From Patescibacteria group bacterium (lineage in GTDB: Bacteria > Patescibacteriota > Microgenomatia > Levybacterales > UBA12049), in assembly GCA_035946335.1 (NCBI GenBank), contig DASYZL010000019.1, positions 12,414 through 76,413 on the forward strand: DNA of 64,000 nt, written 5' to 3'. A program made the translations under genes and the position numbers. Below, piece by piece: positions 2,998 through 61,660 of this stretch (positions are counted from its first letter, which is position 1; each line of letters begins with the position of its first letter). The notes below the pieces were generated by a model. That model was not told the DNA's origin. It ran no database searches and saw only the letters and a program-made list of their open reading frames with translations.

Positions 2998-5900
2998 TTA
3001 ATTCACAATCCACCAGTCAACAAAAATGCTTTGTGTTGCTGGCTTATCAAGTGTTATTGAAAATGATTTACCTGCAATTTTATTGCTTACGCCTATGTTT
3101 ACAGGGCTACTTGCCGTTACAAATATCTTTGATCCACCAGTCACAGCGGTAGTTTGTACAACAACATTTGTTGTTCCTTGTGAGATAGTTACAGTACCAA
3201 GAGATGCACTTGCTGTATTGGAAGTATCCACGTCATATTTCTGTACTGTCATTGCTGCATGTATTTGTATATTCCCACTCGTATCAATCGTCACTTTCCC
3301 ATTCTCGAAGTCTACTCCTGCTTGCGCAAGAGACTGCACTTTCAGTAATGTTGATAGGGTGTTGATGGTTGCGCTTGCTGTACCAGTTGAGGTATCCATG
3401 CCATTGATACTTAATAATCCTGTATCGATGGCTCCTGTTACGCCAAGATCTGAGAGAACTGTCCGTCCTAAAACACTCAGACTTCCTGAAACTGTTGCAT
3501 CCTCTGTTGCAACACCCAACACTGCCTGCATTGCACTGCTTGATGCAAGAGCCTGATTGAGATTTATCTGTTGTTGCACCTGTGCAAGCTGCTTTGACAG
3601 ATCAGCAATTTTTCCAATCTGTGCAGAGAGAGAAGCTGTTTCAGTTTGTAATTGCGATACTGTTGCAGAAAGACTGTTGAATGTATCCGGTGTTATGCCA
3701 TTTTCTGTACCTGCGTTTTGCTGAGATGTTGTTGCAATAATACCTGTACTTGGTTGATTATTCACCGCCAAATTGAATGACGTTGTACTCAGTGGTTGAC
3801 CATTGACTGAAAGATTACCACTATCTGTAAGTTGTATACTTGGGTCGAACCAGCTCAGATTCACAAAAACCAAGATTTTTCCAACAGCTTGTGGATCAGA
3901 ATCAGTATAATTTTCTAATGCTCTCCCAATTGTCCATCCTGATTTAGTTGCTTTCATGGCAACACCAGGGATAGATGATGCAGTTAACATATCTCCAACT
4001 GCAATAGGTCCATTGATGGTTGAAACCTTGGTTGGGACTCTCCCTGAAAGTGCTACGGGTTTAGGATGAATTAAATCTGTTTTTCCTCCGTCTTCAGAAA
4101 TATCAGTGAGTAAGAATCCCGGTTGGGTCGAAATTATACCGATCACGTTACCTCCATTGAACGTGGTTTTTTGGACTCCTTTATTTACAGTTGCGTCAAG
4201 AGAGACAACATCTCCTGGTTCGAGCACATTATTTTTATCAGAATAATTTTCAGCAAGGTCTGTCGAACTGGCGGTAAATGCATTTGCCCAATATACTAAA
4301 TTGCCGCCAGCGGTAATACACGTATGGCCAACTTGAGTTCCTGCGTTATTTTGAATAATGATTCCTTTTGGGCTTCCATTTGCGCAAGCTGAGGTTCCAG
4401 GTAATTTCCATATAATGGTATTGTCAGTTGCGCCGCTTGCCCAATCAAATGTTTGACCTGATGTTCCCCACTTAATACCCCCATTGTCTATTTCTAATTT
4501 ATCTCCTGGTGTCGTCGTGCCTATCCCAACGTTCCCGTTCTGAGTGATGACAAACCGGTTCAAACCGGAGGAGGAAGCAGTGAACAGATCTCCTACTCCT
4601 GAGTTGTCATCAACCAGAGAAGCAAAGGAGGTTTTGCCAGATATGGAGGCAACAGATATTGTTCCGGAGTTTGCTCGAATATCCAATGTTGCCAGTGGAG
4701 ACGTATTGTTTGGTCCTATTCCGATATTGCCTCCATTATCAATATAGAGTCTAGGGGTGTTAAGACCTCCAGTATAAAATTGTAAATTTCCACTCACCTG
4801 ATCTGCGCCTATTGAATTAGTTCCGTTTCTACTTAATCGTAATACTGGACTACTTGCTGATGTATCTAGAGAAATATTTCCCCCTGAGCCCGCTGCAACT
4901 AAAGTGTATCCCGGTGTCGTCGTGCCAACACCTATGTTTCCATTCTGGGTGATGACAAATCTGCTCAAGCCACTGGAAGAAGCAGTGAAGAGATCACCTG
5001 TTCCGGAATTATCTACTACTAATCCGGCCAAGGAGGTTGTTCCGGAAAGAGAAGCAATAGGAACTGTACCAATCGCTGAAGAGATATTTATCTGTCCCTG
5101 TAGGGATAGATTGCCATTGATTCCCGCACTGCCAAACAGCTGGGTATTGCCGGTAACTTCCAAATTACCATTACTAAAAATATTGCCTGCATAAATACTG
5201 CCACCTGCACTGCCTAACCCTCCTCCGCTTGCAGACGCAGAAGCGAGAGACTGCCCTGTCAATCCGATTAAATCCAGGTTTCCCGCAATAGACACTCTGG
5301 CAGTTGAAGCATAATACACGGTTGTTGAGAAATTACCCCCCTGTGGACCACCACCAATGACGTAGAAATACCCATTTGCCGTAACTGCAGACGTAAAGTC
5401 TCTTGCTGCGAGGACTGGAGTTGCATTGGTATTCCATGTTCCGACAGATCCATCACTGTTAAGTTTCGCGTAGTAGATCGTTGTCTGATCATTAGTGCCA
5501 TCGTCTCCGGTAAGCCAGTAAATATACCCATCAGCAACCAGGGATGCTCCTGCAGATCTGGCGGTAGGCATTGAGTTTGCATTTAACCACGCTCCGGTAG
5601 ATCCATCACTGTTAAGTTTCGCGTAGTAAACACTTGAGGAAGCTGAAACGCCATTAAATCCTCCTAAAACATAGAGAAACCCATTAGCAACAACTGCCAT
5701 CGGCTCTTGCAAATTTTGTGCTAGATTATTTGCGCTATTCCATGCCCCAAGTGACCCGTCAGGATTGAATTTTGCGTAGTAGACGGTATTTCTTTGATTA
5801 CCAGCACTAAGAGATCCTGCAATCACATATGCATATCCATTGGCAGCAACTGCTGCGGACATTTCTCTGGTAAATGGCAGTGCGTTGCTATTGGTAATCC

Positions 5901-8166
5901 ACGTTCCGATGGTTCCATTCGCATTCAATTTCGCATAGTACACGGTTGATTGAGAACTCCCTGCGTTATTACGACCTCCGAACACATAAACATAGCCATT
6001 ATTAACAACCGAAGAATTGAAGCGTAGTGTTTGAGGCAAGGCAGTAGTGGGAATCCAGTTACCGGTAGACCCGTCAGCATTCAATTTCGCGTAGTTTACC
6101 GTCGCTACTACGCCCCCTGCAGTATTTCCACCGATATAGTAGACATAACCGTTTGCTTCAACTGTTGAGCCTGCAGCGGCTGCTGTTGGCAGACTGTTGG
6201 TGCTTGTTGACCAGGAACCAATTGAGCCATCCTGGCCTGAATTGAATGCTGCTGTTTTCTGATTGACATCCAATCCGTAGGCTGGTGTCGTCGTGCCGAT
6301 TCCAACATTCCCAGCTTGGGTAATAACAAATCTATTTTGCCCTGATGAAGAAGCGGTGAACAAATCACCAGCTCCTGAGTTGTCAACGACGAGACCTGCA
6401 AATGATGTTGCGCCCGAGATACTTGCTGTTGGTTCAGTACCGTTTAAGCTTCTTACATCAAGTGTTCCCAGAGATCCAGTTGCACCAATAGATAAGGTGT
6501 TCGTTTGTGTTGCCGGAGAGAGTACGCCACTGTTTAACTGCCAGAAGCCGTTCTGACCGCTTGACGCTGAGGTGATGAGATTTTTGACATATAAATTATT
6601 CCATTCCAGAGATGAAGAACCTAAGTTATAGGTATCTGTCACGTTTGGCCCTATATTACCCGCAGTTTGCAGAATAAATGAAGATGGATTTGTTGTACCG
6701 ATCCCAACATTTCCATTCTGATTAATGACAAATCTATTCAGTCCGGAAGAGGAAGCGGTAAAAAGATCACCCTTTCCTGAATTATCGACCACCAATCCAG
6801 CAAATGAAGTTTGCCCAGAGATGGAAGCAACAGCAAGCGTACCTGAGTTTGCCCGAACATCAAGCGTACCTGACAGCGTGTTTGTTCCTGTTCCTATGCC
6901 TACACCGCCGGAATTGGGTTGTAGCGCTAATATGGAACTTGTCAACGTAGAACTTGCTGTCACTTGAGATACTGTTCCATTTTGGAAGAGTTGCAGCGCA
7001 TTGCTACTGTTACTACCATCAATTTGTAATTTCTCATTATTAACAGCATCATATAACAGGAGTAACCCGCTGTCAGGTAGTATCTTTGTATAGTTACTAG
7101 GATTGTCAACAAAGGTAAGATTATTGTTGAAATAAATTCCTGTCGCGAGTCCATTTACATCTCCTATCCCTACTTTGATACTTCCGTCAGTTCCTAGTAC
7201 CTGGAATTTTGCAGAACTTGTTGCTGTCCCACCTATGAGTAGATCGTTTGATATATTTGTCGGAGAGAGAGCACCGGAGTTGAGTTGCCAGTAACTTGCA
7301 CTTAAACTTGTAGATGCTACCCACGATGGTGCTAATCCTGTTCCATTGGATTGAAGCACATAACCGCTAGTACCAGGGGAAAGAGAAGTGAAGGAAGAGG
7401 TACTGTTTGCATACAGAACTCCATTCGCAGTGAACGAACTCGGTGCAAAGCTATCGGTAAGGGTAAGTTTCTTGTTGCTGGTGTCCGAGGAAATACTGAT
7501 GCCGCTTCCTGCGTTAATCGTCAGAGTATCTGAGTTGCTTCCTGCTGAGAAGCTTGTTCCGCCACTGGTTATGGTCTTGAAGATATTCTGACTTGAACCG
7601 GTATCGCTATTGGCGATGGTCAGTCCACTGATGGAAATACCACTACCTTGGGTAAAAGTGAGTGCACCGGTACTCCCTTGCAGGGACAGGACACCGCTAT
7701 TTGTAATGGTTGGATTCTGACCACCGCTGGATGTAATACCGCTCCCTGCTTTGATGGTATAGAGAATATTTGCTGCAGTGAGGGAACCTGATCCAAGATT
7801 CAATCCTTTATTTTTTATGTACACATTACCGTTGAAATTCGAATCGCCATTGACCGTTAATCCCTGGCTGAATTCTGAGGGGTAATTAAATATTAATTTT
7901 GCGTTTATGGGCTGACGTGTCGTACTTGAAGCAGCAAGGACAGATTGATCGTTTTGTTGCTCTGTGGGTTGCGAAGTATTGTTTATAATTCTTGGCGCAA
8001 GGATTGTATAACCGAAATAGCCCGCAGTACCGAAGGAGACAAATAACACAAAAATAACCGATGCAAATGCAAGATGTAATTTCATTCCCTCCAGAACGCG
8101 TATCACCTTTACAGGCAGAAATAAGTTCATTTTGTTCTCTCCAAATACACAGAAGTTACCACCCAT
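2998..8166 (-). CDS. Giant secreted/cell-surface repeat protein of 1722 aa. It has a signal-anchor, four copies of a ~50-aa SISG..[20 protein letters not shown] module, a six-blade Kelch-like propeller, a conserved ~100-aa GD.VS...IPGV domain, a coiled-coil and a C-terminal FVDWWIVN tail.
   Basis: Single 5.2-kb ORF. N-terminal TM: [24 protein letters not shown]. Alternative in-frame starts lie at 8130 and 8085. Module repeats: [60 protein letters not shown], four times. Kelch-like repeats: [10 protein letters not shown]...[16 protein letters not shown], six times. ORFs on the opposite strand inside it are low-complexity artefacts. Confidence 0.8.
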   Translation of the reverse strand: [1722 protein letters not shown]

Positions 8167-19666: not shown

Positions 19667-20548
19667 CTATAAAGATAAGTAATGTGCATACGGATAAAAA
19701 CTTGGCCATAAATGAGATAATAAGAGCTTTCTGTATATGTTCTTTTCTATCTTCTTAAAAACTTTTCTATTTAGTTCAATAATCTCTAGAGAGAACTCTG
19801 TTATCGTTGCTGCAGGAATATTTATCCGTATGCATGGATTAATAAATGGCAACATATACGGCGCACGAACAGATTGATTTCCCAGCTTCACTGCTAATCC
19901 TCCTTCATATGAACCAATTAAAAAATCGCGTGGATCGGCAATATTGATTACAGAATGTGTTTGAAACCTATGTATTGATTGTATTGGAATGGCAAGATTT
20001 TCCGGTTCTCCAACTTGGATACCTGCAATAATTTCTGTAATGACACATTTATTTTTTAGCAATTTTTCACAAATGAATTTCACAGTCGACCCAGTGAAAA
20101 TGTCGTCGTCAATTAGCACCAATGGTTTTATATTGCTTAACTGTAACATTTTTATTTGTTGGTCTAGAGATATATATCCTGGTCTTGCTGCTATGGCTAA
20201 CTGTACCTCACCCTTAGTAGTAAAAATTCTCGATACGCCTAGTTTTATTGCGTCAATTTGCGAATAGGCATCAAGAGTAATTGCCCTTTTGCCTCTAAGC
20301 AAATCTGCTTTTTTCTTTTCTTCTTTGTACAAATCTGTGACGAGAACAGTTGCACTGGGAAAATCTTTTCTTAAGTATTTGATGAGAATTACAATAAGAC
20401 CAGTCAGAAAGAAATTCGAAATATTTTGATAAAAAACATCATACGTTTTATCCATCGTTTCTGTTTTTCTCCGAATGTCCTGAAAAATCAGTTGACCTTC
20501 GTTGCGAAGAAGAAATAGATATGGTTTTTGTATTTTCTGTTTTGCCAT
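19667..20548 (-). CDS. Phosphoribosyltransferase-domain protein (type I PRTase fold, specificity unknown).
   Basis: 293 aa. It has the PRPP-binding motif VLIDDDIFTGSTV, preceded by a hydrophobic segment. Confidence 0.6.
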   Translation of the reverse strand: MAKQKIQKPYLFLLRNEGQLIFQDIRRKTETMDKTYDVFYQNISNFFLTGLIVILIKYLRKDFPSATVLVTDLYKEEKKKADLLRGKRAITLDAYSQIDAIKLGVSRIFTTKGEVQLAIAARPGYISLDQQIKMLQLSNIKPLVLIDDDIFTGSTVKFICEKLLKNKCVITEIIAGIQVGEPENLAIPIQSIHRFQTHSVINIADPRDFLIGSYEGGLAVKLGNQSVRAPYMLPFINPCIRINIPAATITEFSLEIIELNRKVFKKIEKNIYRKLLLSHLWPSFYPYAHYLSL

Positions 20549-20550
20549 AA

Positions 20551-20612
20551 AAAAATCCGCCTCTTCATAGCCCTCCTTACTGAGGGCATGAAGCGACGGA
20601 CTTCCGTGGTAC
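20551..20612 (-). terminator. Strong rho-independent terminator on the minus strand.
   Basis: The minus strand reads TCCGTCGCTTCATGCCCTC-AGTAAGG-AGGGCTATGAAGAGGCGGA followed by TTTTTTT. This is a ~19-bp GC-rich stem and a 7-U tail, ending 3 nt upstream of the PRTase start codon. Confidence 0.7.
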
Positions 20613-21365
20613 CACGCTTCTTTCTAGCTTAAAATCTCTGTTTTTTGCCTTCACAGAAAGTAAGGCAACTCGTTTATGTTACCTACTTTCCTTGCGGATT
20701 TTTTCTGTAACTTGCTCCGGAGCTCGAGGGAGATCATTGCTGAATCCTTTCTCCATCAACGCGAACTAATTGTGAGAGTAATTTACTACAAGCTTTTTGA
20801 TTTGTCAAGTGGCTGGTTTCTTCGTAGGTCAAGTAGTTATTCCATGTAGACAGCTAAACCCTATCACTCGCCTTCGGCATGAATCGATGACATTTATAAG
20901 GAATATCAAAAATCTTATAGTATATAACCGTGATATTACCTTAATCTTGGTAAAAATCTGGAAGCTTTTCGTTGATATAGCGACTTAATGCTTAATAGTA
21001 AAAATGGCAGAAAAAATTTATGATTGCTAATAAATATTGCTAGGAGCAGTAAATTTTGCGCTTCAAAAACAGCCTTGATATTACTAGAAAACACAGTCAA
21101 ATTGACCTTTTTATTACGTATCACTTATCTTTTCACTGTGCTAAATATATACCTGCTGCCAACTGCTGTACAAAGCATTTCATAGAAAGGACTTGTGTCA
21201 ATTTTGTTTTGAACCTATACAGTCAAAAAAAGAATTATCTTGAGTGGTAAGACAAAATCATCTTTATTAATGATTATCCTTGTGAAAAGCAAAAATCTAT
21301 TGTTTGAGATACATTTTGATATTAAAAAATAGGAGAAAACTCGTGAATAATTAGTTAAAAATAAC

Positions 21366-21386
21366 TGTGAAAATTTTATTTTCACA
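21366..21386. promoter_or_regulatory. Perfect 9-3-9 palindrome TGTGAAAAT-TTT-ATTTTCACA in a long non-coding gap (candidate operator).
   Basis: Read directly from the sequence. It lies in the AT-rich 1.2-kb gap between the PRTase gene and leuS. Confidence 0.35.
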
Positions 21387-21776
21387 AAGCTGAGTCAGCT
21401 AAAAATTAGCAATTCATAAAAGGTTTTAAGCAAGCTTTCTCACCCATGAGAACATTACATGTATCTTTTCCCAACAAAAAAGAATCCAGATTTTTCCTTA
21501 GTTCTATTTGCATTAGCACTCAAAAATACCAAGCGTTAATTTGCTCCATATTCTTTCTGTGCTTTACCAATCTTTTCAACCCTTTTCTTTAATTTCAATA
21601 GAACCACAGAACATTAAGTGATGTTTTCTCTTGTCTGATCGGTGAAAATTTGTCTTGTGAAATTTTATTTGTGGTGCCTAAACGAAACTAGTATATAAGA
21701 TATCAGCAAGGATATCTTTAACGCCAGGAGAAACTACCTGGAGAATAAACTTTTTGAAATCTTAAGATCAAAGCAT

Positions 21777-24284
21777 TTACTGTATGACAAAGTTAATAAT
21801 TTTTCCTCGTACGTAAATTTCTTTTTTAATCTGCTTTCCCGTAAAGTACTTTACAACATTTTCGTGCAATTTTGCTTGAGAAATAATTCTTGCTTTGTCA
21901 TCTATTTGGGCCATTGGAACAAGAAGCGTATCCCGAGTTTTTCCATTAATTTGTATAACAATCGTAACTTGTTCTTCTTTTAATGCAGATGCATCATATC
22001 TTGGCCATAAGTATTCATGGATAGAAATAAATCCTTTGTCACTTCCATAATTTAATTGCCAAAGTTCTTCTGTTATGTGTGGAGCAAACGGCGATAAGAT
22101 AAGCAACAAAGTCTTATATTCTTCATTTGATACTCCTTCTTTACTCTCCAAATAATTCACCCATTTCATGATTGTAGAAACAGCAGTATTGAATTTTGTA
22201 CTGATAACGTCATCAGCAACTTTTTTAATTGTTTTATGCATTTCGCGAAGCTCAGTTCTTTTTAAATCATTCTGTGTCTGAGAATGAATTGATGGATTAT
22301 TTTCGTCATCTTTTACCTTTTCTTGCATTTCCCAAACTCGCTTTAATAACCTGAATACTCCCCACATTCCACGAGGATTCCATGGAGCAGTTGCATCATA
22401 AGGCATCATAAAAGCCAAGTACAATCGGACCGAATCAGCGCCAAACTCTCTTACCATATCATCGGGATTCACTACATTTCCTCTTGATTTACTCATCCGA
22501 TTGCCATCCGGTCCTAAAATAACTCCATGTTGGACCCGTCGGAGAGCAAATTCTTTAAAATTCACTAAACCCAGGTCATGGAAGAACATTGTAAAAAATC
22601 TTGCATATAAGGTATGGCCAACAGTATGCTCAGCACCGCCAAAATAAATATCCAATGGCATGAGTTTTGTAACTATCTCTTTGGGAAAAGGTCCATCTGC
22701 AAAGAGTGGGTCGAGATATCGATAGAAATACCAGGACGAGTCAAAGAATGTATCCAAGGTCTCTGGATCACGTTTTGCTTCTCCCTCGCATCTTGGACAA
22801 GTGGTTATCATCCATTCTGTCGCTGTTGCAAGGGGCGCTTTACCTTTCGGAGAAAAGTCCACATCGTACGGAAGCTCTATTGGCAAGTCTTTTTCCGGAA
22901 CCGGAACTATTCCACATTGCTTACAATGAATCATAGGAACAGGCGTTCCCCAATACCTTTGACGTGATATCGACCAGTCACGGATATGATAGGTTGTGAC
23001 TCGTCTCCCCCAACCTTTTTCTACAAAATAATTCATTGTTTTTTCCATTGCCTCAACAAACTCTATGCCATCAAGGAATTCTGAATTTACCATTTTTCCT
23101 CTGCTCTCTCCGACGATAAGCTGCTCTGGATTCACCAACGATCCAGTCTCCCCGTGTGGACCTGTAACTACTCTTTTGATTGATAATCCAAACTTCTTGG
23201 CAAAAGCAAAATCTCGTTCATCATGACCAGGACAACCTTGGACTGCTCCTGTTCCATAATTCATTAATACGTAATCTGTAACCCAGACAGGAATATTTTC
23301 TCCAGTCAAGTGATTCTTGACATAGTAACCGGTAAAAACACCTGTTTTATTTTTTACATTTTCGAGTCGTTCGCGCTGGGTATTTTTTTCTGCCTGATGA
23401 ACGTAGTCTCTGATTGCTTGATAGGTTCCTTTTGGAACTTGTAGTTTTCTGTCTAAAATTTTTTTCACGAATGGATGTTCAGGTGCGACAACGAGAAATG
23501 TCGCGCCAAAATTAATGGGTGTTGTTGTAAAGACGGCAATTCTTTCCTGTGAGTCAACGACATCAAAATATATCTCAATACCTCTCTTTGGTCCAATCCA
23601 CTGATTCTGCGCAATACGCACTGAGTTTGGCCAGTCAACTTCAGGTTTATCCTTCCAGTATAACCTGTCTGCATAAGCTGTAATTTTCAGAAACCATTGC
23701 TCTACTTCTTTTTGTATAACTTCTGTTCCGCACCGCCAACATTTTCCATTTTCAACGTGTTCATTCGCCAAAACCGTCATGTCTTTTGGGCACCAGTTAC
23801 TCAACAATCTACCCCGGTAAGCCAAGCCCTTTTCATACATCTTTAGAAAAATCCATTGATTCCACCGGTAATATTCGGGCAAGCAGGTAACCGTCTCATG
23901 ACTCCAATCTATCATTGATCCCATGGTTGCAAACTGCTTCTTCATGGTTGCGATATTAGACAATGTCCAGTCCCTGGGATGAATCCCACGCTTAATCGCA
24001 GCGTTTTCAGCAGGCAATCCAAATGCATCAAATCCATTCGTGAAGAATACATTTCTTCCTAACATCCTCATGACACGGGCATGTATATCTGCCATTGCAA
24101 AGGTAAACCAATGTCCCAAATGTAAATCTCCTGACGGATACGGAAGTTCTACAAGCGGATAGTATTGTTCTTTTTTCGAATCGAATTCAAATTTGTAGGT
24201 TTGCTCTTTGTCCCACTTTTGCTGCCATTTTTTCTCAATCACTTCAGGCAGATAACGATTGATTTTTTTTGCAGTATTTTTCAT
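21777..24284 (-). CDS. leuS: Leucyl-tRNA synthetase.
   Basis: It has ..YPSGDLHLGHWFTFAMADIHARV.. (HIGH), RMSKSRGNVV (KMSKS) and a CP1 editing domain. The ORF track start at 24350 adds 22 non-conserved residues, so the internal Met at 24284 is preferred. Confidence 0.9.
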   Translation of the reverse strand: MKNTAKKINRYLPEVIEKKWQQKWDKEQTYKFEFDSKKEQYYPLVELPYPSGDLHLGHWFTFAMADIHARVMRMLGRNVFFTNGFDAFGLPAENAAIKRGIHPRDWTLSNIATMKKQFATMGSMIDWSHETVTCLPEYYRWNQWIFLKMYEKGLAYRGRLLSNWCPKDMTVLANEHVENGKCWRCGTEVIQKEVEQWFLKITAYADRLYWKDKPEVDWPNSVRIAQNQWIGPKRGIEIYFDVVDSQERIAVFTTTPINFGATFLVVAPEHPFVKKILDRKLQVPKGTYQAIRDYVHQAEKNTQRERLENVKNKTGVFTGYYVKNHLTGENIPVWVTDYVLMNYGTGAVQGCPGHDERDFAFAKKFGLSIKRVVTGPHGETGSLVNPEQLIVGESRGKMVNSEFLDGIEFVEAMEKTMNYFVEKGWGRRVTTYHIRDWSISRQRYWGTPVPMIHCKQCGIVPVPEKDLPIELPYDVDFSPKGKAPLATATEWMITTCPRCEGEAKRDPETLDTFFDSSWYFYRYLDPLFADGPFPKEIVTKLMPLDIYFGGAEHTVGHTLYARFFTMFFHDLGLVNFKEFALRRVQHGVILGPDGNRMSKSRGNVVNPDDMVREFGADSVRLYLAFMMPYDATAPWNPRGMWGVFRLLKRVWEMQEKVKDDENNPSIHSQTQNDLKRTELREMHKTIKKVADDVISTKFNTAVSTIMKWVNYLESKEGVSNEEYKTLLLILSPFAPHITEELWQLNYGSDKGFISIHEYLWPRYDASALKEEQVTIVIQINGKTRDTLLVPMAQIDDKARIISQAKLHENVVKYFTGKQIKKEIYVRGKIINFVIQ

Positions 24285-50024: not shown

Positions 50025-50160
50025 AACAACGTATCTTTTCCATAAGTTATCCACATTTTTTTTCTATATAATATTTTGCCTTTACAATAACCTAATCGTT
50101 ATATTGTTTGCTATAGGATATATGATATTTTCCGATATCATTGCTATGGGTTGACAACAA

Positions 50161-50349
50161 ATGTCCCACTATGCTACACTTTTTGTCGTTATGTTAGACC
50201 GACTTACCAGCCGAATCATGAAACGCTTTCAGAAAAAGCAACGAAAAACCCTTGAAACATATAAACGGGAAACATTAGTTGCGGTTGGCAGAACACAATT
50301 TCAAACGTTACTGAAGAAAAAATTACAGCTTCCTATTGGAATATGGTAA
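50161..50349 (+). CDS. Hypothetical small basic protein.
   Basis: 62 aa, K/R-rich. The ORF is immediately followed by an imperfect long hairpin (50363..50417). Confidence 0.2.
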   Translation: MSHYATLFVVMLDRLTSRIMKRFQKKQRKTLETYKRETLVAVGRTQFQTLLKKKLQLPIGIW

Positions 50350-51017
50350 ATTGATAAAAAAGAGCATCGCTTTCGTTACTTGGTGAATAAATTCGTACGA
50401 TAAGCAATGCTCTTGCAATTTGCAATTAGTCCTTTAGGCAGGAATAAACTAAGTGCAGAATTAATTAATACATAAAATTGCAATATATGTCAAGAAAAAT
50501 TGCTGAAGCTAAAAATGGTTATTTTTCTTGACAGGATAATATAAATGGAAAAGAGAAAATTGAGTCCATTTATTATTCGGAATTGTTTTTTTATTCTGAT
50601 AGGGTAAGAAAGTTGGGCAGGCTTTCTTACCCGCTTAGAGTAAATAAGCACTTACTGCTTTCCCAAAATAACAAGTATATCAGCAGCGTCTTTTGGCTCT
50701 ATTTCTCTCTTAGGTAAGCTCCCTACTGTTCTACCCAGCATGCACACAATCTCTGATGCGCTTGTAGATTGCTTCTCTGGTAGATCAATGGTCATGCTGT
50801 GTTTGTAGTCACTTTGACTGGCATTACTCTTATCAACTCTCACTCCAGTAATTTTTTCCACAAAATAAAACTGCTCGCTATGCTATAAGCAAGAATAAAA
50901 CTTCTCTTTTCCACTCTTGGAGAAAGTCGAATGAGAAGATATGAAGAAGAGCGAAGCCTAAAAAAGCAAAATATGCTTATAACACTATCCTATCTCCAAG
51001 AATGGCTGAGCTATCTT

Positions 51018-56596: not shown

Positions 56597-56715
56597 AGGA
56601 AAGAACATAGCTACCCGGCAATGCAATCTTATTAGATCACAACCGGCACACCAGGGGTTCCCTCAATCCAGTCCTCTCGTCATTACGTTTGCTCAGATTT
56701 CTCTGAGGATCAGAC

Positions 56716-57679
56716 TATATCTTTACCCTCGTATAAACGTAGGGTATCGGCATATAATAGAAGTTTATTTCCGGATTATCCGGTACCTTCTATGTAAGTC
56801 GTTACGGGGACTATTCCAAAGAATTTCTCTGCGAAGAAAAATAGTTATACGTTCGCATTTGTACAATCCAAGATGAAATATCTTGCTTTGTGAGCAATTT
56901 TTTCTGTAATCTTGGAATAAGATCGATTAGCAACTTCGCTTGTCTTTGCTTAAATCGTAAATATGGCTGAAGTTTCAAAAGCATATCATATACTCTTTGA
57001 AATCCTTCAATTCGTAATTCGCTGATATGATCATTACGAATGTACACATACCCACAACCGAGGATTTTTTGAATCCACTGAATTTCTTGATGATATTTAC
57101 TATCTTGGTAAAAACAAATAACCGTTTTTACCCGGAAAATTTCTTTTCCTTTCGCAGTGCGATGAAGTTGAAGCATAATGCTTCCATCGCCGTCAAGAAA
57201 CCCTGCAATATATGCAAGTTGTAATTGATTTTCTTTAGAAAGTCTTCCCACGGTATTATCCTTTGACCTTTATCTTGAATATATCATAGGACTAGCGATA
57301 TATTCAAAGTCACGGGGACTTCACCGTTATTAGCCGAATACACTTACCACATTACTGCGGTAAGGAGCAATTGCTTACTAGGATCGACCCTCCTCAAGTT
57401 TCGACGGATATGCAGGATAGAGACCGACAATTGTGTTACATTTTCATTCCTGAAAATGATACAACATTTCTGTTGTACTCTCTATGTCGCCATAGAGTTC
57501 GGACTATATCTTATCAAGTTATATTGATTCTAGCATATAGTCTCTGAGGGTTTCCAAAAAATGGATCTTCCCTGCTGATTGACTCCACCGAACAAATTAT
57601 TACTATTGCTTATAGTATTGTCGGATACAGAGTGTTTCCAGCATTTAGCTAGATTTATAGACAGCAACGGTCTATGTTT
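56716..57679 (-). mobile_element. Group I intron in 23S domain V (I-CreI-type site, near E. coli 2593) carrying a LAGLIDADG homing endonuclease.
   Basis: The exon sequence ..CGTCGTAAGACAGT is interrupted. Group-I core strands are present: P7 5' CAGAGACUAUAUGC, P7 3' GAUAUAGUCCGA, and a P9 hairpin with a GCGA tetraloop. The boundaries are approximate (±20 nt at the 3' side). Confidence 0.7.
56811..57251 (-). CDS. Single-motif LAGLIDADG homing endonuclease (I-CreI-like) encoded in a 23S intron.
   Basis: 146 aa. LAYIAGFLDGDGSIMLQL is the LAGLIDADG motif. The size is typical of homodimeric family members. Confidence 0.85.
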   Translation of the reverse strand: MGRLSKENQLQLAYIAGFLDGDGSIMLQLHRTAKGKEIFRVKTVICFYQDSKYHQEIQWIQKILGCGYVYIRNDHISELRIEGFQRVYDMLLKLQPYLRFKQRQAKLLIDLIPRLQKKLLTKQDISSWIVQMRTYNYFSSQRNSLE

Positions 57680-57687
57680 ACTGTCTT

Positions 57688-57722
<35 letters not shown>

Positions 57723-57783
57723 CCGGCGAACAGCCGGACCCTTGGGAGCTTCTCCACCCCCAGGATGTGATGAGCCGACATCG

Positions 57784-58085
57784 CTGTCGAAAATTCTGTT
57801 ACCAGAAAATGTTGACTATCCCTTCATCCTCTGTAATCAGAGGAGCTAGCCGTATGATAGAAACTATATATTTTATCATTAGATAAAAGTATTCTATCTC
57901 ATCGTGTAATACACGAATCAGTCGATACGGGGTCACGTCTTTTTTGACTGACTTCCCTCGGTATTGTCCAATTTTTACGTTGGAGTTTACCGATTTGAGC
58001 TAGTAAATTTTAATTCCATTGCATGGGTTAAATTCAATGGATACCCAGACTAAAACGTTACCGTTTCGGCGCCCCAATGTTATTA
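57784..58085 (-). mobile_element. ORF-less intron (~302 nt) in the 23S at the E. coli ~2500 site.
   Basis: The exon GGCACCU | ... | CGAUGUCGGCUCAUCACAUCC is split. The intron ends in G (..UUUUCGACAG) preceded by a GUAA-capped hairpin and a GAUAGUC (P7 3'-like) element. The 5' exon ends in U. Confidence 0.65.
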
Positions 58086-58128
58086 AGGTGCCAAACCGCA
58101 TCGTCGCTGTGGACGCTTGGATGCGATC

Positions 58129-58161
<33 letters not shown>

Positions 58162-58202
58162 AAGTTCCGCGCTTACCACTAAGCATCGGAAGATCACTAA
58201 CA

Positions 58203-58234
<32 letters not shown>

Positions 58235-58619
58235 CGCAGTTAAGCTGGCTTATGCGTTTGCGCTATCACCTTGATTTCTTTACAAGGTTAGCCAACCTTT
58301 GTACGACTCCGTTGCGTTGTAGGAGTCAATCGCCCCAGTTAAACTGCCCATCAAGCACTGTTCCGTTGCCAAATTTTTATGTGGCTCACGGTAATGGTTG
58401 CTCATTCCAAAGAGAGGTATTTCACTATCGCCAAAGCTCCCTCCTATTCTCAACATATAAAATGAACTCCCAAATGCCAAACTACAGTAAAGCTCCCGGG
58501 GTCTTTTTGTCCATGCATACCTAGGCCGCGTCTTCACGGCCATCTCAATTTCGCCGAGTAGATGGTCAAGACAGTTGCTCAGTCGTTCTACCTTTCGTGC
58601 GGGTCGGAACTCCACGATT

Positions 58620-59555
58620 CTCCTCAATTACGTGAGGCGTAGACTATATCTTCACCTAATACTTCTAGAAGTTCCTCTTTTTGATATCTTCTTGCTCCAA
58701 AACCATTCATTTGATATGAAAAATCCAAAATTTTCTTTAGAGTATCCTTTTGCAAATGTTTACGTTCATATACCATCCGGCATACTACCGCAAATAAATC
58801 AAAATCTTTCTTTTTTGAAGAAAGCAATGGATAATCTTGAAAATGTGGAATAACTTTCATTATCAAGTCTTTGATACTCCTCACCTCAAACTTGTGTGTT
58901 CGATCACTCGGATTCTTTCGAATAGTACCGCAATCAAGAAATGTTTTAAACAATGTTAAAACTTCTTGACGATCGCTATTTTGAGAAACCGAAAAACTCG
59001 GTCGAACTTCAAGTCCAGTTAAGAGTTTTGATCTTGGAGAAAAAGAAATACAGAAACTTCCTTCTCCATCAGCGTATCCTGAGAGATAACTACCGATGGA
59101 ATCCGTATTAAGCGCTGGCGTGTTAGGCATATTATAAGTATGCCTCTGATTCATAAATGAATCAAGTCGTTACGGGGAACTGTTTTGTTTACAAAACAGT
59201 TCTTACCCACGGTTTGACCCTCATTTTTGCATGCTACCTTGTTAGCACAACATGATAGGGCTTTACCGTTTTAAGCCAGTACGGGGTTTATTATCGCCCG
59301 ACAAGGAACTTCGCTACCATAGACTTATATTTATTATCCTGAATCTAACTACCAGGAATCCTTTATGTCGCCATAAAGATCGGACTATATCATCTCTGTC
59401 TAATGCAGAGTTTGGCGTATAGTCTCTGAGGATTTTCGCTAGTGCGAATCTTTCCTGCTGATTGACTCCACCAAACAGATTATTACTATTTCTAGTACTG
59501 TTGGATACTGAGTTATTCCAGCATATAGCCAAATTTTGTAACTGCCCTATAGTTT
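58620..59555 (-). mobile_element. Group I intron in 23S domain IV (I-CeuI-type site, E. coli ~1917-1931) carrying a LAGLIDADG homing endonuclease.
   Basis: The exon ..GTAACTATAACTGTC is interrupted. The core elements are homologous to the 56716..57679 intron (P7 5' GUAUAGUCUCUGAGG; P7 3' GAUAUAGUCCGAUC; a P9 hairpin with GCGA loop). The 3' boundary is approximate. Confidence 0.7.
58624..59154 (-). CDS. Single-motif LAGLIDADG homing endonuclease (I-CeuI/I-CreI family) encoded in a 23S intron.
   Basis: 176 aa. YLSGYADGEGSFCISF is the LAGLIDADG motif. The ORF runs to within a few nt of the 3' splice site. Confidence 0.85.
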   Translation of the reverse strand: MNQRHTYNMPNTPALNTDSIGSYLSGYADGEGSFCISFSPRSKLLTGLEVRPSFSVSQNSDRQEVLTLFKTFLDCGTIRKNPSDRTHKFEVRSIKDLIMKVIPHFQDYPLLSSKKKDFDLFAVVCRMVYERKHLQKDTLKKILDFSYQMNGFGARRYQKEELLEVLGEDIVYASRN

Positions 59556-60990
59556 GACAGTTATAGTTACTGCTGCCGTTTACTGGAGCTTATATCCTAG
59601 ACTGGTATTGCTACTTCATCAGAGATATTTGACTTACCAGCACTGGGCAGGTGTCAGCCCCTATACGTTGCTTTTCAGCTTTGCAGGGACCTGTGTTTTA
59701 GATAAACAGTCGCTAAGCAATCTTTTGTTGCAACCACGATGAACGTGGTAGGGCATCTCCCATAGGTTACGCCCAGCTTTTGTGCCTAGTTCCTTGGCCA
59801 TCTTTCTCTCGATCACCTTGGTCTGCTCGACCAGCCCACCTGTGTCGGTTATGCGGTACGGAAGTATGTAGCTTTGTCTGCACTTGCGTGAGACGTAATG
59901 AAACTTTTCCCGGAAACTGAAACCTATCAAATCAATCTGCCTTGCGACAAACTTTTTCATCACAGCTCAAATAAACAAAACAACGGATTTGCCTGTTGTC
60001 TCTTTCTTGCTGCTTAAACGCGCCTTACGGACGCCTGATTGTTCCAATTTCGTCATTCCCTTACACGATTCTACATCCTGTAGTCGAATTGTGACGACTT
60101 GTCCATCGGATTACACCCCATTACACGAGGCACATCCTTAGGGCCGACTAACCCTTCGCTGAATTACATTGCGAAGGAAACCTTGGGCATTCGGTGGTAC
60201 AGATTCTCACTGTACTCTCGCTACTCATACCGGCATTCTCACTTGTCAGCGCTCCACCAAACCTTATGGTTCCGCTTCGCCGCACTGACAACGCTCCCCT
60301 ACCAATTGCATTACTGCAAGTCTCTAATTTCGGCACATGGCTTGATCCTCCTGAATTTCCGGCGCCAAGAATCATCCGCCAGTGAGCTGTTACGCTATCT
60401 TTAAAAGGTGGCTGCTTCTAAGCCAACTTCCTGGGTGTCTATGAATCTTGACTTCCTTGTAAACTGAGCCATGATTTAGAGGCCTTAATTGAGAGTCTGG
60501 GTTGTTTCCCTCTAGACCCATCGGCTTAGCCCGACAGGACTGACTACTAAGACAAGATCGTATGTATTCGGAGTTTGATTGGTTGCTACCTCTTGCGAAG
60601 CAGAAAACCATTCAGTGCTCTACCCCATACTCCTTTTATCTTAGCGCTATACCTAAATATATTTCGGGGAGAACCAGCTATCTCCAGGTTCGTTTGGCAT
60701 ATTGCCTCTAACCTCAAGTCATCTCAAGTCATTGCTGCGACTACGAGTTCGGTCCTCCCCCTGGCTTTCGTCAGAGTTCAACCTGCTCAAGGTTAGCTCA
60801 CCTGGTTTCGGGTCTATTCCCATCGTCTAATGCCTAATTAGGGCACGCTTTCACTACGCCTTCGTAACCATTGTTACTGAGACTTGACGATGCAGAATAA
60901 CTCACCGGTTCATTCTTCAATAGGCACGACGTCACTTGCGCTTCGTCTGCTTGTCAGCCAACAATTTCAGTTCTCTTTCACTCCCCTTCC

Positions 60991-61021
<31 letters not shown>

Positions 61022-61660
61022 CGTTCACTATCGGTAGATTTTGGTATTTAGCCTTGGAGTGTGGACACCCCGAATTCCCACAGAGTTTTATCGTGCTCCA
61101 TGGTACTTAGGTACAAACTATCGGTGTTTTTAATTTTGCGTACACGCTTTTCACGTTCTTTGAGGAACCATTCCAGATTCTTCTGCTACTAAAAACACAT
61201 CAAATATCGTTTGCCCTGTAACCCCACAAAAAGTGGTTTAGGCTCTTCCGGTTTCGCTCACCGCTACTAACGGACTCTCATGTGATTTCTTTTCCTCGCG
61301 CTACTGAGATGTTTCAGTTGGCACGGTACCCTACCATACACTATACATAGTATTACTACCATACTTTTATATATGGTTGACCAAAAGGCCGGATTACTCC
61401 ATTCAGAAACCGCCGGATCGAAGGTTGATGGCACCTCCCCGACGAGTATCGCCGCCGTCTGCGTCTTTCCTCGGCCAAAATCTCCCAGGCATCCATTGCT
61501 GGCATTATGAGTAGATAATTAAAACCTTACTCCATCAGATCTTTCCGCGTATGCGCGGTTAGATGTGATGGAATCTCTTCACTTGTCAAAGAGCACTCAC
61601 GTTTTATCCTCTTGGATAAACCTCCTCTTTCTAGGAGGCTTGCCGAAAAGGACAAGCATG

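Follow-up and report, generated by a model that had tools for sequence, protein, structure and literature searches.

T-boxes are textbook riboswitches of Gram-positive bacteria. Class I T-boxes (Rfam family RF00230; e.g. the tyrS and glyQS leaders of B. subtilis) have a K-turn at the base of Stem I, a specifier codon in its 3' strand with a purine after it, and an S-turn Stem II. Their antiterminator helices, A1 and A2, flank a UGGNACC bulge and share sequence with an intrinsic terminator that ends in a U-run, and an aminoacyl-tRNA synthetase gene lies downstream. For arginine, such leaders have been described in Firmicutes before argS (e.g. one of the three argS genes of Bacillus cereus, PMC2494555), and in the TBDB collection the specifiers preferred by Arg T-boxes have A or C as their last base (PMC7778990). 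Transcriptional T-boxes generally require a long Stem I, and those in which Stem I is short, for the most part translational T-boxes of Actinobacteria, rely on Stem II (PMC7583486). Examples of the short type are the translational ileS T-boxes of Actinobacteria (Mycobacterium, Nocardia), with an intermediate or 'ultrashort' Stem I (Sherwood et al. 2015, as summarized in PMC7583486). Here we describe a T-box leader in a stretch of 64 000 nt (hereafter the window) from a metagenome-assembled genome (MAG) of a Patescibacteria group bacterium (GCA_035946335.1, contig DASYZL010000019.1, positions 12 414 to 76 413).

On the minus strand the window reads leuS (24350-21777), a gap of 1228 nt, an open reading frame (ORF; 20548-19667) for a 293-aa phosphoribosyltransferase (PRTase)-like protein, and argS, encoding arginyl-tRNA synthetase (19663-17789). 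A preliminary description of this DNA presented the whole gap as a candidate 1.2-kb structured non-coding RNA, either a separate RNA ending upstream of the PRTase gene or a riboswitch-type terminator/antiterminator leader. The leader reading turns out to be correct for ~220 nt (20768-20549), which make up a T-box leader, with homologous T-boxes before homologous genes; a separate RNA is not supported. We are fairly confident that the gap has two parts: a minus-strand promoter-like site with the T-box leader (20808-20549), and then an unstructured non-coding spacer (20809-21776). Judged by its sequence, the element is a T-box riboswitch, i.e. of a known kind, and a variant in which a truncated Stem I is combined with a terminator-type expression platform in a Patescibacteria MAG.

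Architecture of the T-box leader

The Rfam search that the preliminary description had suggested was made as a permissive scan of 1.5 kb (20400-21900) and as a scan of the whole window. It returned one significant match, to the T-box family RF00230 (gathering score 93): the minus strand at 20768-20589 aligns with model positions 1-219 at 37.4 bits. The E-value is 2.4e-6 for the 1.5-kb region and 1e-4 when the whole window is scanned, where it is the only T-box match. No other family reached its gathering score or E <= 0.05 in the gap in either scan; this includes RNase P, transfer-messenger RNA (tmRNA), signal recognition particle (SRP) RNA and 6S RNA, which the preliminary description had not matched by eye.

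The antiterminator (discriminator) occupies 20620-20590, as given by the Rfam alignment and by explicit comparison of helices. In helix A1, GAAGCG (20620-20615) pairs with CGCUUC (20595-20590); the 7-nt T-box bulge is UGGUACC (20614-20608); and in helix A2, ACGG (20607-20604) pairs with CCGU (20599-20596) around the loop AAGU. The full string, GAAGCG-UGGUACC-ACGG-AAGU-CCGU-CGCUUC, thus contains a bulge of the UGGNACC form, and a search of the window for the core GTGGNACCRCG hits this single site (reported for both strands, the core being palindromic). Two motifs noticed earlier belong here. The palindrome CGTGGTACCACG, which is present although shifted by one base from the coordinates first given (it lies at 20605-20616), is the conserved T-box core, i.e. 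the UGGUACC bulge with its flanks. The motif GGAAGUCCG, once likened to the P4 element of RNase P, is instead a portion of helix A2 and its loop: it takes up the last bases of the first A2 strand, the loop AAGU and the first bases of the strand that pairs back (ACGG-AAGU-CCGU).

The antiterminator overlaps an intrinsic terminator on the same strand, recognized by folding and z-scores: a hairpin at 20604-20552 and a run of seven U at 20555-20549. Its folding energy is -33.4 to -34.0 kcal/mol, and windows covering it have z-scores of -5.7 to -6.2. This is the structure first described as a 19-bp GC stem plus U7. It is indeed a strong terminator, and the description of the stem is approximately right: a bulge and a G-A mismatch interrupt its ~17 core pairs, and not all of its bases are G or C. 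The 5' arm takes in CCGUCGCUUC, where the second strands of A2 and A1 make up the 3' half of the antiterminator; terminator and antiterminator are thus mutually exclusive. The U-run directly adjoins the ATG at 20548.

Upstream of the T-box, TTGACA (20808-20803), a spacing of 17 nt and TAAATT (20785-20780) form a promoter-like site on the minus strand (20808-20780; 10 of 12 consensus positions). It is the best such match in the region, and the predicted start lies ~10 nt ahead of the T-box; the site would be the promoter of the leader.

Stem I (20762-20714, minus strand, from the Rfam alignment) is truncated. Its base is a K-turn (GC-GUUGAU-GGAG ... CUCC-GGA-GC) aligned with high posterior probability to model positions 7-18 and 95-103, above which the stem carries a small hairpin capped by GCAA (20743-20734) and an internal loop on its 3' side. 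The whole stem spans ~49 nt, with 25 nt in place of 72 in the Rfam model, and the AG bulge and distal loop that make up the tRNA-elbow platform are absent from it (there is no AGAGA or GGUGNRA in the sequence). Stem II (20711-20678) is formed by GUUAC ... GUAAC with S-turn-like GAAA / AAGUAGG motifs, and it contains AAGUAGGUAA, which is common to the window and its relative L001 (see below).

Between Stem II and the antiterminator is a 7-bp hairpin, UUGCCUU-N10-AAGGCAA (20668-20645). The preliminary description had noticed it with a spacer of 9 nt; the arms (20645-20651 and 20662-20668) are there, and the spacer is 10 nt. By its position and flanks (AAACGAG before, AA after), compared with the leaders of L001, L002 and L008, this hairpin appears to correspond to Stem III, whose flank motif is described as conserved (PMC7583486). 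It is followed by an A/U-rich insert of ~24 nt (20644-20621), as compared with 4-6 nt in the relatives. An H-type pseudoknot could form between the hairpin loop UUUCUGU (20659-20653) and its complement in this insert, ACAGAGA (20641-20635).

Related leaders, downstream genes and proposed arginine specificity

T-boxes were also found upstream of homologues of the PRTase-like gene in other contigs: directly upstream in L001 (77.3 bits, E 2e-15), in L002/L003 (65.1 bits; no argS downstream) and in L008 (42.2 bits; the protein is fused to a HAD phosphatase there). The four leaders compared (window, L001, L002 and L008) all score under the RF00230 threshold of 93, and standard annotation would therefore miss them. 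They share the order A1, UGGNACC, A2, overlapping terminator and U-run in four out of four cases. Helix A1 shows compensatory double changes at two pairs across the four leaders (C-G to G-C, and G-C to A-U), and the terminator stems are unrelated in sequence, yet all of them pair. (MAFFT alignments of the leaders misalign the variable loops and were excluded from the counting of pairs; helices were compared explicitly.) The homologous leaders are units of 240-300 nt, with -10-like boxes just upstream in L001, L002 and L008, and in L001 and L008 the U-run adjoins the start codon, as in the window.

L001 is the closest of these loci. It has the same arrangement of the PRTase-like gene and argS as the window, a similar protein N-terminus (MVKQ in L001, MAKQ in the window), and the same divergent pair of genes for tRNA-Pro(CGG) and tRNA-Arg(CCU), by which we place the two in one lineage. 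L001 and L002 keep a full-length Stem I including the elbow platform. The Stem I of L008 (T-box at 5678-5915) is even shorter than that of the window, i.e. ultrashort, with CGC in an apical 7-nt loop (GUCGCGA), and the terminator with U7 is retained. The L008 MAG is labelled 'uncultured Gammaproteobacteria'. To our knowledge this is not a class known for T-boxes, and for this reason the label, or the biology, merits a check.

No T-boxes were found before the more distant homologues (L005, L006, L007, L009, L014, L015 and L017). The nearest argS relatives without a PRTase-like gene have <80 nt upstream of argS and no T-box there, which indicates that the PRTase-like gene, and not argS, is the partner with which the T-box moves; argS comes second after it in the window and in L001.

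The proposed specifier is CGA (20726-20724, minus strand), followed by the purine G20723 and by the closing helix CUCC (20722-20719). The 3' strand of Stem I in the window (AAUGA-U[CUCCC]U-CGA-G-CUCC-GGAGC) aligns with that of L001 (AAUGA-A-U-CGC-G-CCCU-UGAGC), which puts CGA-G at the position homologous to CGC. The specifier loops of the relatives are GAAU-CGC-G before the closing helix in L001, GAA-CGC-U in L002 and the apical GU-CGC-GA in L008. CGC and CGA are both Arg codons, and argS lies downstream of the window leader. We infer from this alignment that CGA is the specifier codon. The UGGU of the bulge predicts A73 as the discriminator base of the cognate tRNA; tRNA-Arg(CCU), the only tRNA-Arg encoded in the window, has A73, and no CGA-reading isoacceptor is encoded in the window.

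The first regulated gene (20548-19667) has very few relatives: three by single-sequence search, and 26 clusters by profile search of 5.8 billion sequences, with members in candidate phyla radiation (CPR) and other MAGs and in Streptomyces and Kitasatospora. Known families match the protein weakly, around the loop that binds phosphoribosyl pyrophosphate (PRPP). An AlphaFold (AF2) model built from 26 sequences has a predicted local distance difference test (pLDDT) score of 94 and a predicted template modelling (pTM) score of 0.90, and is thus confident; the PDB structures closest to it are purine and adenine PRTases (E ~1e-3 to 1e-2). We read the model as that of a divergent type I PRTase with extra helices. 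Besides the window, family loci include L001 (8001-8933), L002 (1263-2264), L008 (~5920-7773), L006, L007, L009 and L014-L017. Fusions of the protein to a HAD-IIB phosphatase occur in L006, L007, L008 and P0097; in Streptomyces (L009) and L015, HAD is encoded by the following gene. Other neighbours of family genes include argS, an M20 peptidase and an amino-acid kinase (ArgB/ArgE-like genes), and an Orn/Arg decarboxylase.

Two loci without a T-box appear to have another kind of leader. In L014 a short leader ORF with a run of Arg codons (MTATASKKINKVIRRRRTLIMFEAVCQCLSL; 2813-2908) comes before alternative hairpins and a terminator-like hairpin that ends in a U-run (~2943-2969); in L006 there is likewise a short leader ORF with an Arg run (MKKIQSNLIQRRRNNHYLLRLFVSV; 188-265), past which inspection by eye resolved no clean terminator. 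The encoded runs are RRRR or RRR, and both leaders look like classical Arg leader-peptide attenuation. Since two unrelated types of Arg-sensing leader precede members of this family, we argue that it is predicted to serve a function in arginine limitation. The Arg-regulated PRTase(-HAD) family is a more novel lead than the T-box itself.

The second regulated gene, argS, starts 3-24 nt past the stop of the PRTase-like gene. Within 20548-19667 the minus strand showed no promoter-like site. The lack of a separate promoter-like site past the terminator for argS, an essential gene, argues that the switch still has to open. The T-box would probably turn on the PRTase-like gene and argS when arginine is scarce, as follows. 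The anticodon of uncharged tRNA-Arg would pair with the specifier CGA in the truncated Stem I, which would be functional with the help of Stem II, and the free 3'-ACCA end of the tRNA would pair with UGGU in the antiterminator bulge. This pairing would hold the antiterminator and block the -34 kcal/mol terminator, and RNA polymerase could then read into the ATG at 20548. Charged tRNA-Arg would be unable to stabilize the antiterminator, and transcription would end in the U-run before the start codon. A read-through transcript that refolded into the terminator would probably be poorly translated too, because the hairpin adjoins the AUG.

Dual control of transcription and translation through a GAGG in the 3' arm of the terminator (11 nt from the AUG) was considered and downgraded, as the genes of the window are mostly without a Shine-Dalgarno sequence: a Shine-Dalgarno-like tetramer within 25 nt upstream was seen at eight out of 32 gene starts examined, at widely scattered spacings. 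The gene starts lie throughout the window (e.g. at 781, 31777 and 49188), and several of them have TATAAT-like boxes a few bases ahead of the start codon, which suggests leaderless or non-Shine-Dalgarno initiation in this genome.

Spacer, alternative readings and other features of the window

The gap between the start of the PRTase-like ORF (20548) and the stop of leuS (21777) is real, as first described. It is the longest gap of the window outside the rRNA region in a greedy ORF map, and its core is AT-rich (27-34% GC in windows centred on it, as compared with ~34-46% in leuS, the PRTase-like gene and argS). The earlier statement that it holds no credible ORF stands as well. No gap ORF exceeds 68 codons, stop codons number 20-33 per reading frame, and no long ORF opens when any one of the stop codons is reassigned. 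By in-frame hexamer score (real genes 0.30 +/- 0.17, with a 5th percentile of 0.051; wrong frames -0.47), all gap ORFs of at least 32 aa score at or below -0.08, and a single 30-aa ORF reaches 0.057, about the 5th percentile of real coding pieces.

The spacer proper (20809-21776, ~970 nt, both strands) was characterized by negative searches and by synteny. Outside 20500-20700, windows of 120 nt have z-scores between -2.8 and +2.2 on both strands, at odds with a structured RNA over the full 1.2 kb. The gap also drew weak matches (E 6-10) to Rfam models of snoRNAs, lncRNAs and miRNAs, which were dismissed as chance. There are no significant repeats inside the gap, no copies of it in the rest of the window or in the fetched loci, and no match to the spacer in phage and plasmid collections. 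Searches by tblastn with all ORFs of at least 60 aa from 13 related loci revealed no protein remnants in the gap; the sole match below 1e-3 is a translation of the T-box region itself. A replication origin was also considered and rejected, as the gap has no DnaA boxes and no GC-skew switch.

Genomic contexts in relatives offer an explanation for this interval. L010 shares the order leuS ... argS-M16 peptidase-NDK-VKOR-DsbA, and there comEA, comEC and a response regulator gene fill the interval between leuS and argS (L010 83-6839); in L001 (1-10744), comEA-comEC and six more genes lie upstream of the T-box. All of these genes are absent from the entire 64-kb window. As relatives carry comEA-comEC between leuS and argS, the spacer is most likely the remnant of a variable, gene-losing interval, i.e. 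a deletion scar.

Several small features lie in or at the edges of the spacer. An 8-bp hairpin (AAGAUAUC-N6-GAUAUCUU) with a weak U-rich tail is found on the minus strand at 21718-21697, ~60 nt past the leuS stop; it is one of two small hairpins there, its z-score of -1.4 is not significant, and it is a possible, weak candidate for a leuS terminator. The perfect 9-3-9 palindrome TGTGAAAAT-TTT-ATTTTCACA (21366-21386), pointed out in the preliminary description, is exact; perfect inverted repeats with arms of at least 9 nt, however, arise in 13% of Markov-resampled gaps, i.e. at chance level. A 20-nt imperfect direct repeat (20790-20809 and 21747-21766, 75% identical) brackets the gap core almost exactly; it is probably due to chance in AT-rich DNA, and could alternatively mark an old recombination or deletion junction.

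Several points weigh against a functional arginine T-box in the window. The score of 37.4 bits is far under the Rfam gathering score; Stem I is without the distal platform that transcriptional T-boxes generally need (PMC7583486); there is no clear Stem IIA/B pseudoknot or F-box in the leader (GCCUUA merely resembles the F-box CCGUUA); and the ~24-nt insert ahead of the antiterminator replaces 4-6 nt in relatives. A 5-nt insertion (CUCCC) beside the specifier permits an alternative Stem I pairing that would bury CGA, and RNAfold favours it (-11.7 versus -8.7 kcal/mol), so that the fold given above for Stem I is a tentative one. The cognate tRNA-Arg (anticodon ACG or UCG) is absent from the window, so that the discriminator match is made with another isoacceptor, and in L001 the UGGC of the bulge does not fit the A73 of its own tRNA-Arg(CCU). 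No relative with >52% protein identity has the same truncated leader (two metagenome scans found no closer relatives), and the window Stem I thus has no covariation support. The T-box may then be a decaying relic, in which the deletion in Stem I and two insertions disable tRNA sensing and the operon is expressed through constitutive leakage past the terminator or from an unrecognized promoter. The lost platform, the buried CGA, the insert seen in no relative and the canonical long Stem I retained by L001 would all fit such decay. Against it, none of the core elements has been lost: the leader retains its K-turn, Stem II, the full T-box bulge and helices A1 and A2, has an Arg codon where the specifier is expected, and ends in a very stable terminator. 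In a relic the terminator would be expected to go first, as the essential argS sits behind it with no internal promoter seen. Moreover, L008 independently joins an even shorter Stem I to a terminator and U7, so terminator-type T-boxes with a short Stem I recur in the PRTase-like family, and T-boxes with a short Stem I that rely on Stem II function in Actinobacteria (PMC7583486). We therefore regard decay as unlikely. A T-box that works but senses another tRNA is very improbable. The 3' loop reads CUCGAG, where CUC (20728-20726) overlaps CGA and could address tRNA-Leu, next to leuS; and the Stem I preferred by RNAfold exposes AGG-A in the asymmetric loop AAGGAU, where a 5'-side AGG (20748-20746) could address tRNA-Arg(CCU), which is encoded in the window and has A73. 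The specifier of T-boxes, however, is found in the 3' strand of Stem I, with a single purine between it and the closing helix, which here gives CGA-G, and the aligned position is CGC in three homologous leaders; leuS is upstream, outside the control of the leader, and we know of no precedent for a 5'-side specifier.

For the rest of the gap, the spacer reading is drawn from negative results, and the ~970-nt core may hide a lineage-specific small RNA, small protein or regulatory region. The genome is compact and this gap is its longest outside the rRNA region of the window, minus-strand windows at 21460-21620 have z-scores of -2.4 to -2.8, the 9-3-9 palindrome is perfect, and the lineage is sparsely sampled (the nearest ArgS relative is 49% identical). 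Yet there is no Rfam match, no coding signal and no similarity to the fetched sequences; the z-scores are within the range for the many windows tested and the palindrome is at chance; and the low GC is typical of unconstrained DNA. We regard a hidden element of this kind as unlikely. That the entire 1.2-kb gap is one long structured RNA ending at the terminator, as its strong minus-strand terminator and several hairpins had suggested, is scarcely credible: structure is confined to 20549-20770, the promoter-like site (20808-20780) is directly ahead of the T-box, and the homologous leaders are short units with promoter-like boxes of their own. A T-box leader followed by an unstructured spacer remains the reading that we adopt.

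Elsewhere in the window, the 23S rRNA gene region (56691-61518, minus strand) contains three group I introns over the Rfam threshold (57480-57689, 57792-58095 and 59361-59566) and a fourth, sub-threshold group I intron match (56691-56847) beyond the aligned 23S 3' end; several ORFs of 100-176 aa in this region may encode homing endonucleases. A second long gap (50025-51017, 993 nt) has the only perfect DnaA-box consensus of the window (TTATCCACA at 50047) and a one-mismatch DnaA box at 50854, with no GC-skew switch at 4-kb resolution.

Comparison with known T-boxes

We found no report in the open-access literature that links T-boxes to Patescibacteria or the CPR. Cell-cycle regulation of these bacteria has been called 'virtually unknown', in a recent perspective that mentions riboswitches only as prospective engineered tools (PMC11665869). 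A model built from the four leaders could reveal how minimal cells that are auxotrophic for amino acids sense amino-acid supply, and the Arg specifier is a functional handle on an unannotated protein family. The combination of a truncated Stem I and an intrinsic terminator in two leaders tests the view that transcriptional T-boxes need contact with the tRNA elbow for fast binding. We tentatively advance a joint proposal, for which the chances are in our view somewhat below even: that terminator-type T-boxes work without a Stem I elbow platform, with the window and L008 as natural examples from lineages (a Patescibacteria MAG and other uncultured bacteria) for which we found no T-box report and whose T-boxes the Rfam thresholds overlook, and that the PRTase they guard, often fused or adjacent to HAD-IIB, has a previously unknown function induced by arginine starvation.

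Like class I T-boxes, the window leader has a K-turn, a proposed 3'-side specifier with a purine, a Stem II with S-turn-like motifs, the UGGNACC bulge, A1 and A2 overlapping an intrinsic terminator with a U-run, and an aminoacyl-tRNA synthetase gene downstream. It differs from them in its Stem I of ~49 nt without AG bulge and distal loop, its 24-nt insert, the lack of a clear Stem IIA/B pseudoknot and a score of 37 bits as compared with the threshold of 93; in its first gene, which encodes an uncharacterized PRTase-like protein; and in its host, a Patescibacteria MAG and not a member of the Firmicutes. With the Firmicutes Arg T-boxes before argS it shares the proposed Arg specifier and the predicted control of argS, although here the T-box travels with the PRTase-like gene and not with argS. 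Leader-peptide attenuators, which the leaders of L014 and L006 resemble, would also sense charged tRNA-Arg, but would do so by ribosome stalling, and there is no such leader ORF in the window. The actinobacterial ileS T-boxes, as far as they are described in the summary cited above, resemble the window leader in a short Stem I without elbow platform and in the retention of Stem II, and the specifier of L008 is in an apical loop, as in their ultrashort forms. In contrast to that type, the platform of the window is a terminator hairpin with U7 and not a helix that sequesters a Shine-Dalgarno sequence, the amino acid is Arg and not Ile, and the specifier is in a 3' internal loop and not in an apical one.

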